From IMG/VR virus record IMGVR_UViG_2671180770_000009: 4,059 bases of DNA. One strand, 5' to 3'. The notes under the pieces are model-generated. The model was not told the DNA's origin. It worked only from the letters and a program-made list of their open reading frames with translations, and ran no database searches. This DNA comes from a virus. Taxonomy: Duplodnaviria; Heunggongvirae; Uroviricota; Caudoviricetes. Both the position numbers and the translations under genes were made by a program. Positions 1 to 4,059 of this stretch are shown piece by piece (position 1 is the stretch's first letter; each line of letters opens with the position of its first letter).

Positions 1-86
1 TAACCATCATCGAGATCTGCCACATTACGCTCCTGTTCGGCAAAGTTACCTCTGCCGAAGTTGAGTATTTTTGCTGTATTTGTCAT
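1..86 (-). CDS. O: Replication initiation protein O-like, N-terminal 28 codons only (gene continues beyond the window start)
   Basis: Reverse-complement of 1..86 translates from ATG (86..84) as MTNTAKILNFGRGNFAEQERNVADLDDG, which matches my recollection of the lambda O N-terminus almost residue for residue. AGGAG Shine-Dalgarno (complement of 92..96) sits 5 nt upstream. It follows cII on the same strand as in lambda. Too short to appear in the ORF track. Confidence 0.8.
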   Translation of the reverse strand, partial: MTNTAKILNFGRGNFAEQERNVADLDDG

Positions 87-89
87 AAT
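61..89 (+). promoter_or_regulatory. pO-like promoter for the oop-like antisense RNA
   Basis: TTGAGT (61..66), 17-bp spacer, CATAAT (84..89) on the plus strand, placed just upstream of the oop-like transcript and overlapping the O start codon on the other strand. Hexamer match only; no transcript data. Confidence 0.4.
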
Positions 90-95
90 GACTCC

Positions 96-172
96 TGTAG
101 ATTGATCCAGTAATTCCCTCAGAATTGCATATCAATTTGCTTAGAGTCCCCGGCGGCCACCGGGGATTTTTT
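96..172 (+). ncRNA. oop: OOP-like antisense small RNA, antisense to the 3' end of cII
   Basis: Plus-strand segment gtagattgatccagtaat...ctcagaa resembles the lambda oop RNA as I recall it, and ends in a GC-rich hairpin plus T-run inside the cII 3' coding end. Position and antisense orientation relative to cII and O match lambda oop. The 5' end is estimated from the putative -10. Confidence 0.55.
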
Positions 173-415
173 CTTTGTGATTTCATCAAGCGCATACTTA
201 AAAGCCCTGCTAATCGGACTGATGTCTGATGCCATTCCGAAAGCACACAAGACCGAAGCAATAAATCTCCAGTCCGTTCTGCTTATCTTCGATTCATGAC
301 AGCCAATCATCTTTGCCAGACCGCGCTGGGTAAGCGTTGACAGGTTGATGAGTAAATCAGTTTCAGCGCGATCAATTTCTCGCTGTGATAGTTTGCTGTA
401 ACTTGTTTGTTCCAT
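119..415 (-). CDS. cII: CII-like transcriptional activator (lysogeny establishment)
   Basis: 98-aa ORF. C-terminal KKKSPVAAGDSKQIDMQF closely parallels the lambda CII C-terminus KKRPAATERSEQIQMEF as I recall it, and length is similar to lambda CII (97 aa). Gene order cro-cII-O is conserved, and the region upstream of the ATG (ggaaatcttaagaaATG) resembles the lambda cII translation initiation region. Confidence 0.85.
   Translation of the reverse strand: MEQTSYSKLSQREIDRAETDLLINLSTLTQRGLAKMIGCHESKISRTDWRFIASVLCAFGMASDISPISRAFKYALDEITKKKSPVAAGDSKQIDMQF
147..175 (+). terminator. Rho-independent terminator of the oop-like RNA
   Basis: Stem tccccgg (147..153) / ccgggga (160..166), 6-nt loop, followed by TTTTTTCTTT (167..176). 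The T-run is on the plus strand only, so it does not terminate cII transcription. Confidence 0.6.
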
Positions 416-425
416 TTCTTAAGAT
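393..425 (+). promoter_or_regulatory. pRE-like CII-dependent promoter (TTGC-N6-TTGT direct repeat plus -10)
   Basis: TTGC (393..396), 6 nt, TTGT (403..406) lies within cII codons 3-7 on the opposite strand, and TAAGAT (420..425) follows at the 17-bp spacing expected if the repeats flank the -35 position. Geometry mirrors lambda pRE, which sits at the cII 5' end and fires antisense through cro toward cI. Confidence 0.4.
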
Positions 426-500
426 TTCCAATAGTGAATAGCTAGTTGAAAGGTATGCGTGGAAACGCATATGGCCTTAGTTGGTCAGATATATTGGGAC

Positions 501-546
501 TCGCTTTGTCAGCGACGTAGGACGAATGTCCATTGTGAAAAGAGCG
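501..546 (-). promoter_or_regulatory. nutR site: boxA (546..538) and boxB hairpin (515..501)
   Basis: On the minus strand, CGCTCTTTT (boxA consensus CGCTCTTTA) lies immediately after the cro stop. 22 nt downstream is TCGCTGACAAAGCGA, a 5-bp stem with a GACAA loop, the same loop as P22 boxB GCGCUGACAAAGCGC. Position between cro and cII matches nutR. Confidence 0.6.
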
Positions 547-553
547 GTGTTAC

Positions 554-787
554 TTATGCAGCCGATGCTCTACGCGATACGAACACTAGGTTTTCCTTTT
601 TCACAGGTTTATAACCCGTGAAATTACGAGTAGCTTCTTCGATTGCATTCGCTTTATCAGGGGAAGCTCTTCGAAATCCATATGCAATCTGGTCAAGATA
701 GCCAACTGAAGTTTTCGCTAATGCGGCGAGTCGCTTCCATTCCTCACTAGAAGCCTCTTTTCGCCAGCGTAGTAGTTCATTACTCAT
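554..787 (-). CDS. cro: Cro-like HTH DNA-binding regulator
   Basis: 77-aa ORF transcribed divergently from the CI-like gene, with a GGAGG Shine-Dalgarno (complement of 793..797) 5 nt before the ATG. A helix-turn-helix-like segment (LAALAKTSVGYLDQIAYG) is present. No similarity to lambda or P22 Cro that I can recall, so the call rests on position and HTH. Confidence 0.7.
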   Translation of the reverse strand: MSNELLRWRKEASSEEWKRLAALAKTSVGYLDQIAYGFRRASPDKANAIEEATRNFTGYKPVKKENLVFVSRRASAA

Positions 788-900
788 TAGTGCCTCCGTT
801 TATCACACAGAACAACTTTACCATTTTGATAAACAATCCGCAATGTAAGTTTATCATATTGCGTATTTATCCATTTGCTAAATAGAGGGAAAATTGTGAG
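788..900. promoter_or_regulatory. Divergent OR/pR/pRM-type control region between cro and cI
   Basis: 113-bp AT-rich intergenic region carrying three 17-bp operator-like sites that start with TTTATC (799..815, 817..833, 850..866). Possible pR on the minus strand: -35 TTGCGG (843..838), 17-bp spacer, -10 TAAAGT (820..815), overlapped by sites 1 and 2. I could not pin down a pRM; cI has its own SD (AGAGGGA 884..890). Confidence 0.6.
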
Positions 901-1605
901 ATGGAAAACAAAGATATTCGCAAATCGAATCTGGCGTTTTTGCTAGATGAGCATAAAAAAATCGCGGGTAACACTAATGCAAGCTTTGCCGATAAGCTTG
1001 GGGTTAGCCCTTCTCAACTCACGCAAGTCTCCGGTGAAAAAAGCACTCGAAACATAGGGGATAAACTAGCAAGAAAATTTGAAGCCGCGCTTGGGTTACC
1101 TAATGGGTGGCTTGATTTGGTACATGATGTAACACCAATTGCATCATGCTCAGATTCTTTAACTTTTGTCGGTCAGGTAAGAAAAGGGTTAGTGCGCGTG
1201 GTTGGTGAGGCAATTCTTGGTGTTGATGGTGCCATCGAGATGACCGAAGAGCGCGATGGGTGGCTCAAAATTTATAGCGATGATCCAGATGCCTTTGGTC
1301 TTCGTGTGAAAGGAGACAGCATGTGGCCCAGAATAAAATCAGGAGAATATGTACTCATTGAGCCTAACACCAAAGTATTCCCGGGTGATGAGGTGTTTGT
1401 CAGAACCGTTGAAGGACACAACATGATTAAGGTTCTTGGCTATGACAGAGATGGAGAATACCAATTTACAAGCATTAACCAGGATCACAGGCCTATAACG
1501 TTGCCTTATCATCAAGTAGCAAAGGTGGAGTATGTAGCTGGTATTCTGAAGCAATCTCGCCATCTGGATGACATCGAGGCAAGGGAGTGGCTGAAAAGTT
1601 CGTGA
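901..1605 (+). CDS. cI: CI-like prophage repressor (N-terminal HTH_XRE domain, C-terminal S24/LexA-type peptidase domain)
   Basis: 234-aa ORF. N-terminal HTH (NASFADKLGVSPSQLTQV). The C-terminal domain carries the S24 catalytic serine motif GDSM (Ser139) and a downstream lysine (MIKVLG, Lys177), and FGLRVKGDSM aligns with LexA FLLRVSGMSM. Divergent from cro with operators between. Confidence 0.9.
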   Translation: MENKDIRKSNLAFLLDEHKKIAGNTNASFADKLGVSPSQLTQVSGEKSTRNIGDKLARKFEAALGLPNGWLDLVHDVTPIASCSDSLTFVGQVRKGLVRVVGEAILGVDGAIEMTEERDGWLKIYSDDPDAFGLRVKGDSMWPRIKSGEYVLIEPNTKVFPGDEVFVRTVEGHNMIKVLGYDRDGEYQFTSINQDHRPITLPYHQVAKVEYVAGILKQSRHLDDIEAREWLKSS

Positions 1606-1665
1606 CTTCATCGTCACATAGCTGGTAACCAGTGGCCAGAAGAAACGTTTGGGTGAGGAGGATAG

Positions 1666-2007
1666 ATGGCGTTCACTGACCTTGAATATCAAGCGGTCAA
1701 AAAAGAAGTTCACCAATTCATTGAAAGCATAAGGCCGCCTGAACATATCCGCAATGAACTGGATATTGTTTATAGCATCAATGACCAAACGATAGATATC
1801 GGCGAACAGCGCCCCGTGTGGCAGGGCAACCCAGGTGAAACAAACATCCTGCCATCAGCAAGAATCAAGTACATACGTTCTCTGGATAGATGGAAAATCT
1901 ATTGGATGCGGAAGGATATGAAATGGCATCAGTACAGTACTGAACTTTCGCTGACTGATGCGCTTGAGCTTGTGCGTGCTGACCCGGATTGCTGCTTCTT
2001 CGGATGA
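1666..2007 (+). CDS. DUF3024-like small protein (function unknown), first gene of the accessory cassette
   Basis: 113-aa ORF with a strong Shine-Dalgarno GAGGAGG (1653..1659) 6 nt before the ATG. It contains a WKIYW motif and a C-terminal CCFFG; from memory this matches Pfam DUF3024 (conserved WKI motif), which needs an HMM search to confirm. No terminator between the cI stop (1605) and this gene. Confidence 0.8.
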   Translation: MAFTDLEYQAVKKEVHQFIESIRPPEHIRNELDIVYSINDQTIDIGEQRPVWQGNPGETNILPSARIKYIRSLDRWKIYWMRKDMKWHQYSTELSLTDALELVRADPDCCFFG

Positions 2008-2077
2008 GTGAAGAGACGTTTGGATGATGGATGATCGCAGAGATGCTCGTAGAGCATACAGCGATGCAGGAGAATTT

Positions 2078-2512
2078 ATGGCACTTAATTTAGAAAGAAT
2101 ATCTTTTATAACCCCATTTGATAGCAGCGAAGAACCCAACCAACCGACGCTTAATTTTACATGCAATGAATTTCCTGCGCGGCTATCAATTGATTTCAGG
2201 GTTGGTATGATCGGGTTGAAACCAAATTCAAGATATAATTTGGGTATTATGGTAATCCCCGCGCACCTAATTATAAAAAAAGGTGAGGAAATTCAATTCC
2301 CTGACGGCTCTTCGGAATCAGTTTCACTTTTCATCGATACGAAAGATAGCCATTTTGAAACAGGGGTTGGCGGACAGGTAATAGTAACATTGAAAGAAAT
2401 TAGGGTCCCAGCTAAAGGGCTGTATAGTGTTATAGGGATATTGCAAGATAATGAAGACCCTAAAAATGAACTTCATAAAAATGAATCATTTTTCACCGTA
2501 GAGCTATTATGA
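2078..2512 (+). CDS. Hypothetical protein (about 144 aa, no recognisable domain), accessory cassette gene 2
   Basis: Open frame 2024..2512. Preferred start is ATG 2078 because AGGAG (2068..2072) sits 5 nt upstream; the ATG doublet at 2024/2027 has only a weak SD. Visibly AT-richer than the flanking phage core genes. Predicted soluble, no obvious TM segment. Its stop TGA overlaps the next ATG (ATGA at 2509..2512). Confidence 0.65.
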   Translation: MALNLERISFITPFDSSEEPNQPTLNFTCNEFPARLSIDFRVGMIGLKPNSRYNLGIMVIPAHLIIKKGEEIQFPDGSSESVSLFIDTKDSHFETGVGGQVIVTLKEIRVPAKGLYSVIGILQDNEDPKNELHKNESFFTVELL

Positions 2513-2661
2513 GTGACGACAGTAATTTAAATAATCATGGAAAGCAAGACGCCAACATATCTGAAAGCCGGAGGTTGAAGGTTGTTGGCGGTTCCGATTT
2601 TGAGGCTGAATTTGATAATTCTCCCACCAAGGTGCAAAATAATTACATAAAACCGCCATAA
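2509..2661 (+). CDS. Small hydrophilic ORF (50 aa), translationally coupled to the upstream gene
   Basis: ATG 2509 overlaps the upstream stop as ATGA. It translates as MSDDSNLNNHGKQDANISESRRLKVVGGSDFEAEFDNSPTKVQNNYIKPP and stops at TAA 2659..2661, 12 nt before the next gene's start. Not in the ORF track, presumably because of a length cutoff. No independent SD, so coding status is uncertain. Confidence 0.35.
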   Translation: MSDDSNLNNHGKQDANISESRRLKVVGGSDFEAEFDNSPTKVQNNYIKPP

Positions 2662-2673
2662 ACGGAGGAAGAA

Positions 2674-3129
2674 GTGGGAACGATCAGCAGAGAGGAACTT
2701 GATGCTCGCTTAGCTGCTAATAAAGCAGAGATGGAGTCTATTGCTTCTTCCATTAGGGCTGACATGGCTCTATCTCGTGAAAGCGTTAATGTCCAATTTG
2801 CATCACTTAATGCAGCCATAAGCTCTCTATCGTCCAAGATCGATGGAAAGATGGATAGCGCTGCTGGCGATATAAAAGCAATTAATGGGAGATTCGAAGG
2901 AATTCAAGGACAAATAACAGGGGTTAATACCGCAATTAGTGGTGTTCAGTCGGGTATTTCTATACGATTAGCCATTTTTAGTGTCATTATCGCTGTAATA
3001 GTTGCGATTCCCGGGCTGGTATCAGCTTTAAAGTCAGACCACGCACCTTTGCAACAGCCTTCCACTTTGCAAGCGCCGCCACAAAATACCCAGCCAACAG
3101 ACAACAAAAAAATCACTCCCCAGCATTAA
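2674..3129 (+). CDS. Tail-anchored coiled-coil membrane protein (single C-terminal TM helix, Pro/Gln-rich tail), accessory cassette gene 4
   Basis: 151-aa ORF from GTG 2674 (the first start codon after the in-frame stop at 2659..2661), with a strong SD GGAGG (2664..2668) 5 nt upstream. N-terminal about 95 aa are Ala/Ser/Ile-rich with a heptad-like pattern. A hydrophobic helix RLAIFSVIIAVIVAIPGLVSAL (about nt 2965..3030) is followed by a polar tail PLQQPSTLQAPPQNTQPTDNKKITPQH. Followed by an intrinsic terminator. Confidence 0.75.
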   Translation: MGTISREELDARLAANKAEMESIASSIRADMALSRESVNVQFASLNAAISSLSSKIDGKMDSAAGDIKAINGRFEGIQGQITGVNTAISGVQSGISIRLAIFSVIIAVIVAIPGLVSALKSDHAPLQQPSTLQAPPQNTQPTDNKKITPQH

Positions 3130-3137
3130 CGCATTAA

Positions 3138-3163
3138 CCCGGCCTCAGCGCCGGGTTTTCTTT
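3138..3163 (+). terminator. Rho-independent terminator ending the cI-cassette operon (t_imm analogue)
   Basis: Stem cccggc (3138..3143) / gccggg (3150..3155), 6-nt loop ctcagc, followed by TTTTCTTT (3156..3163), 9 nt after the stop of the membrane-protein gene. Confidence 0.7.
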
Positions 3164-3339
3164 GCCTCACGATCCCCACACCTAAAAACACATAACCAAT
3201 TGTATTTGTTGAAAAATAAATAGATACAACTTGCTAAACAACGCAATCCAGATCTCCCTCAAATCTCTTTATTTATCCTGTCGAATTCCTACAACAAAAT
3301 AAAACACCATAAGAATCAATACGATATTTGAAAACCAAG

Positions 3340-3395
3340 AGAATTTATCATTTTGCTATTGCCATTAATTTATCATTCCGATAAAGCTCACCCAT
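3340..3395 (+). promoter_or_regulatory. OL/pL-like operator-promoter region
   Basis: Perfect 17-bp palindrome TTTATCATTCCGATAAA (3369..3385) and related site TTTATCATTTTGCTATT (3344..3360) share the TTTATC half-site with the OR sites. Candidate pL: -35 TTGCCA (3359..3364) with -10 GATAAA/ATAAAG (3380..3386) at 15-16 bp spacing, overlapped by the palindrome. About 65-70 nt upstream of the nutL boxB, as expected for pL. Confidence 0.4.
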
Positions 3396-3455
3396 CAGCA
3401 GGACGCACTACTCACCAGGGCGGTGAATATACAACGATTCGAATATGAATCTACG

Positions 3456-3470
3456 GCGCTGACAAAGCGC
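3456..3470 (+). promoter_or_regulatory. nutL boxB RNA hairpin (P22-type)
   Basis: GCGCTGACAAAGCGC is a perfect 5-bp stem with a GACAA pentaloop, identical to the P22 boxB sequence as I recall it. It lies 166 nt upstream of the N-like gene start, on the same strand. No convincing boxA (CGCTCTT-like) in the preceding 80 nt. Confidence 0.65.
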
Positions 3471-3635
3471 AATAACCAAAGTGAACTTTGGGGTGTGGTG
3501 AAGGGTTCATGGACGGGAATATGTCGCACGTAAAGCGGCGAGGCCTGCGGGACTATTGCCGAATTGAAGTAGGCCGAAACAGGTCGAAATGGGTCTCCCA
3601 CCTACCACACCACCAAAGTTCATCAGGAGGTCTAT

Positions 3636-3974
3636 ATGACACGCAGAACTCAGTTCAAAGGCAATTCACGTTCTCGTCGTCGTGAGCGTTTAAAGGTAAA
3701 GGCATTAGCTAACGGCGTACTGGCCCGCGAAGAAGCAATAAGTTCAGAAGTATTACACCGCCCTACTCTAAGCAGAGCGCAGATTCAGGCTAAAGGTACT
3801 CACGAAACGCCTGAGCGTATAGAAGACGCTAAGCCAATTAAGTTCATGGCACAGGACGTGATCTGGCAACAGAAAGAATACAGACGCAATCTGGAGCGAG
3901 CGGCCATTGTGTACGCGAATGAGTTTGGACATAAGCAACCAGAAACTGGTGTATGTCTTGGCTTTGTTGAATAA
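3636..3974 (+). CDS. N: N-like transcription antitermination protein (arginine-rich motif)
   Basis: 112-aa ORF with SD AGGAGG (3625..3630) 5 nt before the ATG. N-terminal arginine-rich motif TRRTQFKGNSRSRRRERLK resembles the P22 gp24 ARM (GNAKTRRHERRRK, from memory). Position downstream of OL/pL/nutL on the cI strand matches lambda N. Confidence 0.75.
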   Translation: MTRRTQFKGNSRSRRRERLKVKALANGVLAREEAISSEVLHRPTLSRAQIQAKGTHETPERIEDAKPIKFMAQDVIWQQKEYRRNLERAAIVYANEFGHKQPETGVCLGFVE

Positions 3975-4059
3975 ATCGAACTTTTGCTGAGTTGAAGGAT
4001 CAGATCACGCATCCTCCCGACAACACAGACCATTCCGTGGCAAAGCAAAAGTTCAGAAT
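3975..4059 (+). other. Conserved N-distal region, resembling the lambda sequence downstream of N (tL1 neighbourhood)
   Basis: ttgaaggatcagatcacgcatcctcccgacaac...ccgtggcaaagcaaaagttca is nearly identical, from memory, to a lambda segment found downstream of N in pL-based vectors. Recollection only, not verified by alignment. Confidence 0.35.

Follow-up and report, generated by a model that had tools for sequence, protein, structure and literature searches.

In lambda, OOP RNA pairs with the cII-O messenger, which leads to cleavage by RNase III, less CII and a preference for lytic growth (PMC5869508, PMC2327240, PMC12197685; these papers cite Krinke and Wulff 1987, 1990 and Krinke et al. 1991 for the mechanism). 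An earlier note on a 4,059-nt stretch of viral DNA (IMGVR_UViG_2671180770_000009, hereafter the window) had pointed to an oop-like RNA overlapping the 3′ end of cII at 96-175. The question raised by this locus is whether the similarity reflects a genuine antisense RNA unit or comes merely from the genes and junctions that share the same DNA. Our analysis indicates that positions 61-173 on the plus strand very probably form a pO-oop-tO unit of the 933W/BP-4795-type cII-O junction with a presumably lambda-like antisense action. The oop allele of the 933W/Stx type is already known and is not new.

The prophage surrounding the cII-O junction

The window comes from a lambdoid prophage of E. coli and comprises its immunity and early-regulatory region; the coordinates of the features are collected in Table 1. 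Positions 1-3959 are present in 12 complete E. coli genomes with identities of up to 99.6%, the best of which annotates a CII family regulator, a LexA-family repressor and a DUF3024 protein. The first 420 bases are 98-99% identical to the Stx phages BP-4795, PA28 and 933W, but coverage of the whole window by any single phage record is 61% at most. The cII-O junction is thus of the 933W type and stands beside a different immunity region.

The truncated O gene (translated from the minus strand as MTNTAKILNFGRGNFAEQERNVADLDDG / MTNTAKILNFGRGNF...) is 98-100% identical to lambda O at the DNA level. The CII protein is 33% identical to lambda CII (E 5e-9), and its gene carries the annotation CII in 933W, BP-4795 and E. 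coli 14EC047. Within the first cII codons, on the strand toward cro/cI, a TTGC-N6-TTGT sequence at 393-406 aligns with the CII-binding repeat TTGC-N6-TTGC of lambda pRE; in a scan for this repeat, the count was not above chance.

Besides cI and N, the plus strand holds four accessory ORFs. The place downstream of cI that is occupied by rexA/rexB in lambda is taken here by the DUF3024 gene and three unnamed ORFs, and the ORFs at 1666-3129 are candidate lysogen-expressed accessory or exclusion genes. The window closes with the end of an IS5-family element whose terminal repeat (GGCTTTGTTGAATAAATC) is IS903-like; this multicopy element occurs on both chromosomes and plasmids, at as many as 47 sites in one E. 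coli genome. This element breaks the antiterminator gene N near its 3′ end at position 3960, and the homology to related prophages ends at 3959. In the closest complete genome, E. coli 14EC047, O is annotated as frameshifted (locus L122, 2215-3086, next to the left end of the window). The IS element in N and the frameshifted O in the nearest genome together suggest that the prophage is decaying or damaged.

Table 1. Coordinates of the features in the window and identity to lambda by segment.
Feature	Position	Strand	Details
Replication gene O, 5′ end, first 28 codons	1-86	minus	Runs off the window; start codon is the complement of 84-86
O coding segment	1-60		98% identity to lambda
pO promoter	61-89	plus	-35 TTGAGT at 61-66, 17-nt spacer, TGn-extended -10 CATAAT at 84-89
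pO segment	61-96		100% identity to lambda
33-bp pO/oop-5′ conserved sequence	79-111	plus	Matches the reverse complement of ACTGGATCaATCcACAGGAGTaATTATGaCAAA at 31/33
LexA-box-like sequence CTGTAGATTGATCCAG	95-110	plus	CTGT-N8-ACAG with 1 mismatch; covers the start site of oop
oop RNA gene, about 77 nt	97-173	plus	Ends assigned by homology to lambda oop 38675-38599
Predicted stem-loop I	97-140	plus	Pairs 97-106/131-140 and inner 110-116/122-128
Non-coding 5′ part of oop	97-118		82% identity to lambda
oop overlapping cII	119-146		71% identity to lambda
oop overlapping cII	147-175		69% identity to lambda
tO intrinsic terminator	143-173	plus	Stem 143-153/160-170, loop 154-159, T-run 167-172
cII, 98 aa	119-415	minus	From the ORF list; putative antisense RNA target
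Rest of cII	176-295		25-28% identity to lambda (random)
cro-like gene	554-787	minus	From the ORF list
cI	901-1605	plus	From the ORF list
DUF3024 gene	1666-2007	plus
Unnamed ORFs	2024-2512, 2509-2661, 2674-3129	plus	ORF 2674-3129 has a hydrophobic segment
N	3636-3974	plus	From the ORF list
End of IS5-family element	3960-4059

Promoter, RNA fold and terminator of the oop unit

The pO promoter was found by a consensus scan, which returned six promoter-like sites in the window against 8.4 expected from shuffled sequence. Because the site count is below the shuffled expectation, we rejected the scan as statistical support. The assignment of pO therefore rests on its identity to lambda pO, as a consensus match alone proves nothing. 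The -10 element of lambda pO was defined by mutation, the pO- mutation being the last base of the hexamer (PMC3985674). This base corresponds to the last T of CATAAT here, which confirms the hexamer assignment. The geometry can be read directly from the DNA: the promoter sits within the first codons and the ribosome-binding region of O, its -10 hexamer includes the complement of the O start codon, and it reads away from O. The candidate promoter TTGAGT-N17-CATAAT noted before is thus base for base the mapped lambda promoter, but it lies upstream of, and outside, the interval 96-175 to which it had been ascribed.

Judged by homology, transcription would start at G97 and the 3′ end would fall at about position 173; for the transcribed part, the limits proposed earlier were right within 1-2 nt. 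The RNA is complementary to the last 55 nt of cII (119-173), the same overlap as in lambda (PMC3349717). The fold prediction that had been suggested as a check gave two hairpins at -32.6 kcal/mol for 97-173, with the minimum-free-energy structure identical to the centroid. The z score was -6.3, and none of 200 dinucleotide shuffles was equally stable. The fold is strand-specific. The minus strand folds at -21.0 kcal/mol (z = -1.8), 11.6 kcal/mol weaker, and lambda oop has a similar asymmetry (-28.5 vs -18.5 kcal/mol); it arises because several G-U pairs in the helices turn into C-A mismatches on the other strand. We rejected the alternative that the hairpin serves the cII mRNA on account of the weaker fold of the minus strand.

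The tO terminator is the strongest terminator-like site that the scan returned in the window, with 11 pairs, six of them G-C, followed by TTTTTTCTTT. It is located in the cII codons for K-S-P-V-A-A-G-D-S, and its T-run is the Lys-Lys codon pair. The strong intrinsic terminator that the earlier note had placed inside the last cII codons is therefore present as described. We also considered whether tO could end the cII-O transcript and rejected this, since on the minus strand the A/T run precedes the hairpin instead of following it.

A search of IMG/VR with the 18-mer TGTCATAATGACTCCTGT, which covers the -10 hexamer of pO together with the ribosome-binding site of O, gave 120 loci, 116 of them with enough flanking sequence. 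These 116 viral contigs yielded 28 distinct full-length oop alleles and three short (62-63 nt) alleles of the P22-C1 type. In every allele, a hairpin and a T-run lie antisense to the tail codons of a cII-like gene, even though the cII tails come from different families (...KKRPAATERSEQIQMEF, ...KKKSPVAAGDSKQIDMQF, ...KKKCPVAPEHSDQITMEF and the P22-C1-like ...KEKAPKNGEFFEA). At one locus (L004, IMGVR_UViG_2778261069_000001), the 18-mer at 129-146 is followed by unrelated sequence without an oop-like hairpin or terminator.

In the alignment of the 28 full-length alleles, the terminator helix was 98.7% paired, as compared with 39-48% in controls with the partner slid by 1-3 columns, and RNAalifold independently found the identical helix. 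Both-sided changes occurred at three terminator pairs, CG to UA in 11 sequences, GC to CG in 10 and GC to AU in two, although the alleles represent about four terminator types, so that the independent compensatory events are few. These changes replace CII residues: lambda encodes RPAATER (CGC CCG GCG GCA ACC GAG CGT) where the window encodes SPVAAGD (TCC CCG GTG GCC GCC GGG GAC). As read from the aligned sequences, the CII protein has changed in a manner that preserved the RNA helix.

The 5′ half of the RNA behaved differently from the terminator. Stem-loop I, whose CCUCA loop bears the complement of the cII stop codon (119-121), has a predicted stability of -15.0 kcal/mol on its own (z = -4.7) and is the most stable among the 28 alleles. 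However, neither in the register of the window nor in that of lambda, each tested separately, did the 28-allele alignment contain a compensatory pair in stem I, and the RNAalifold consensus fold omitted stem I and kept only the terminator. A 5′ hairpin is predicted in every allele, with a median z score of -1.9, many being no stabler than shuffled sequence, and in differing registers. Stem I is accordingly a predicted structure, not backed by covariation.

The start site of oop coincides with the LexA-box-like sequence. The window contains three CTGT-N8-ACAG-like matches against 1.1 expected. All 115 oop-bearing loci have an identical 3′ half of the sequence at the start site (GATCCAGT), and this holds even for the short P22-type alleles, which diverge immediately past it. 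A LexA site within lambda oop-pO has been cited, the exact bases being uncertain (PMC5869508).

Relatives of the element and the composite junction

The position, promoter, length, terminator and cII overlap of the element support its assignment, at the level of sequence, as an ortholog of lambda oop. Lambda OOP (38599-38675, complement) shares with it the promoter, the length of about 77 nt, the start relative to the O codon and the extent of the cII overlap; it likewise folds into two hairpins, and its Rho-independent terminator lies within codons of the cII tail. The two differ in detail. In lambda stem I, the same 3′ arm pairs with a 5′ arm shifted by 4 nt, and the element in the window gains an inner 7-bp helix (-15.0 vs -11.3 kcal/mol). 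In the terminator, two pairs are flipped or exchanged, and the loop has 6 nt compared with 4 nt in lambda.

The oop sequences of 933W and BP-4795 (phi-4795) are the same allele, sharing 75 of 76 RNA bases, all of pO and tO and the same cII type. The single difference is A99 in the window, a G in both phages; in stem I, it replaces a G-U pair by A-U (-32.6 vs -31.2 kcal/mol). Unlike in 933W and BP-4795, the allele here adjoins a different cI/cro immunity region with an IS-interrupted N. OOP-BTP1 and P22-type oop RNAs follow the same logic at the same position, as short RNAs antisense to the 3′ end of c1, a cII-like gene. They are shorter, with an unrelated terminator sequence and without the long stem I, and the first 15 nt of oop recur in the alleles of about 62 nt whose tails are P22-C1-like.

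Such elements have been recorded before. The alignment of Hayes et al. 2012 covers pO-oop in 23 lambdoid phages, 933W and phi-4795 among them (PMC3349717 Fig. S1/S2), oop-like sequences were reported in the cII-O regions of Stx phages (PMC5488031), and OOP is listed for "lambda and Stx phages" (PMC12197685). An OOP transcript was observed by transcriptomics in the Salmonella prophage BTP1 (PMC7067206). Our literature search returned no direct transcript evidence for oop in Stx phages or for the 933W-type allele. Neither RefSeq lambda, nor the records of 933W and BP-4795, nor the PGAP-annotated E. coli genome annotates oop. The Rfam scan (E threshold 1) gave three sub-threshold, irrelevant hits in the window, none of them at 61-175; this negative says nothing about the element, because Rfam 15 has no oop model and the lambda control was hitless as well.

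Next to the divergent immunity module, the cII-O junction had been interpreted in the earlier note as a mosaic block inherited from a lambda-like ancestor. We aligned the window to the complementary strand of lambda 38354-38789 and calculated the identity by segment. Over 97-175, the alignment to lambda oop had 73% identity without gaps, 21 of 79 bases being different. The alignment is gap-free over 1-180, and the similarity stops at 180, right after tO, although the CII proteins are homologous. When the whole window was compared with lambda 33000-41000 by sensitive blastn, the matches were limited to 1-180 (the O start, pO and the complete oop), an unrelated block of 122 bp at 3135-3256 and two short, weak hits of 27 and 34 bp. 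The interpretation thus stands insofar as 1-180 is, for this lambda interval, the only extended lambda-like DNA besides the 122-bp block, but the block is not uniform. It is a composite: positions 1-98 are about 99% lambda, and 99-180 are an older, diverged (about 70%) allele travelling with the 933W-type cII. The abrupt end of the lambda similarity after tO could mark a recombination breakpoint rather than selection on oop. The block at 3135-3256 is 89% identical to lambda 35710-35827 (the end of rexB, upstream of oL), and a strong terminator-like hairpin lies within it at 3136-3157. It has the look of a second conserved junction, bordering the accessory genes.

Across pO and the 5′ end of oop runs a 33-bp sequence that is highly conserved in lambdoid phages and was proposed as a mosaic boundary sequence (PMC3349717); both mismatches in the window fall at positions marked as variable there. 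Recombination also reaches into the RNA itself. When the types of the 5′ arm and the 3′ arm, and those of the loop and the 3′ arm, were compared among the IMG/VR loci (L002-L121), all four combinations occurred, which places crossovers inside the 77-nt oop. The recombinants L088 and L005 combine a lambda-type 5′ arm with a 933W-type 3′ arm and fold at -23 to -24 kcal/mol, as opposed to -28 to -33 kcal/mol for the parental types. Their arms still pair, albeit more weakly, owing to GAT motifs repeated in the 5′ arm.

Proposed antisense action and competing explanations

By analogy with lambda, we envisage the following course of events in the host. RNA polymerase would start at pO, make an RNA from about G97 and stop at the hairpin and T-run of tO. 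Its sequence is a perfect complement of the cII-O messenger, beginning just past the ribosome-binding site of O and reaching through the final 17 codons of cII, and the resulting duplex would be cut by RNase III. Levels of cII mRNA and CII protein would then fall, and the decision would tilt to lysis. In addition, the firing of pO against pR would dampen rightward transcription into the origin. In lambda, pO activity lowers transcription from the convergent pR, efficient replication depends on this activity, and polyadenylation destabilises OOP (PMC3985674). The physiological weight of OOP is modest even in lambda, where CII was little affected by it after SOS induction (PMC2327240).

The convergent arrangement of pO and pR leads to the strongest competing explanation, that pO is selected as a DNA element, tuning replication from the origin by interference with pR, and that the short RNA is largely a by-product. 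The promoter is the most conserved part of the unit, fully identical to lambda compared with about 70% for the RNA body, and positional conservation within the RNA is confined to the terminator helix and does not extend to stem I. Moreover, the lambda pO- mutation increased pR read-through and impaired replication, and a raised level of oop RNA left plasmid copy number unchanged (PMC3985674). On the other hand, CII activities in lambda are suppressed when OOP is provided in trans (PMC5869508). Across five different cII tail families, the terminator invariably lies at a place that makes the RNA overlap the end of cII, although a plain stop signal could fit into the 32-nt intergenic gap. The two roles are also not mutually exclusive. 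We consider it possible, though on the whole doubtful, that pO as a DNA element is the main selected function.

The state of the prophage leads to another explanation, namely that oop has stayed intact as a relic while the prophage decays and at present plays no part in its host. The IS5-family element in N and the frameshift annotated for O in the closest genome fit such a view, and the element may be intact but idle here. However, the unit is real and intact, carrying no disabling change and differing by 1 nt from viable phages, 933W and BP-4795, and in lambda lysogens pO is active independently of N. We regard a mere relic as unlikely, and this explanation bears on the present use of the element, not on its identity.

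It is highly improbable that the likeness to oop is a side effect of coding (the O start and a C-terminal degradation tag of CII) combined with a recombination linker, with no functional RNA: the CII tail is indeed better conserved than the rest of the protein (10 of 20 residues vs about 28%), the T-run doubles as lysine codons, and crossovers inside oop as well as the proposed 33-bp boundary (PMC3349717) speak for recombination, but the compensatory double changes keep the helix yet alter amino acids, the G-U pairs and the energy difference favour the oop strand, the non-coding positions 97-118 are conserved, and the promoter is identical to a mapped active one. The similarity to lambda oop is accordingly not limited to what the coding of cII and O would impose, with the compensatory, CII-altering changes and the strand-specific fold arguing against coding constraint alone.

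The antisense unit remains our preferred reading, and the fold of its 933W-type allele invites one further suggestion. This allele locks nearly the whole 5′ two-thirds of the RNA into a 17-bp, register-shifted hairpin, which could alter the speed of pairing with cII mRNA, or polyadenylation and degradation, and with it the lysis/lysogeny set-point; separately, the invariant 15 nt at the 5′ end may serve mainly as a LexA operator and recombination linker. We offer these ideas as speculative and judge them to be rather improbable.

As a discovery, the element carries little weight, since oop is among the oldest known antisense RNAs; its value lies in annotation. Given the unannotated records and the lack of an Rfam model, oop is systematically missed in prophage annotation, and the 28 full-length variants with their conserved terminator helix would be enough to seed a model of oop. 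The survey further documents crossovers within this gene of 77 nt, which lies where the immunity and replication modules meet. If the speculation on the stable, register-shifted hairpin were true, the hairpin could give Stx-type phages another lysis/lysogeny set-point.
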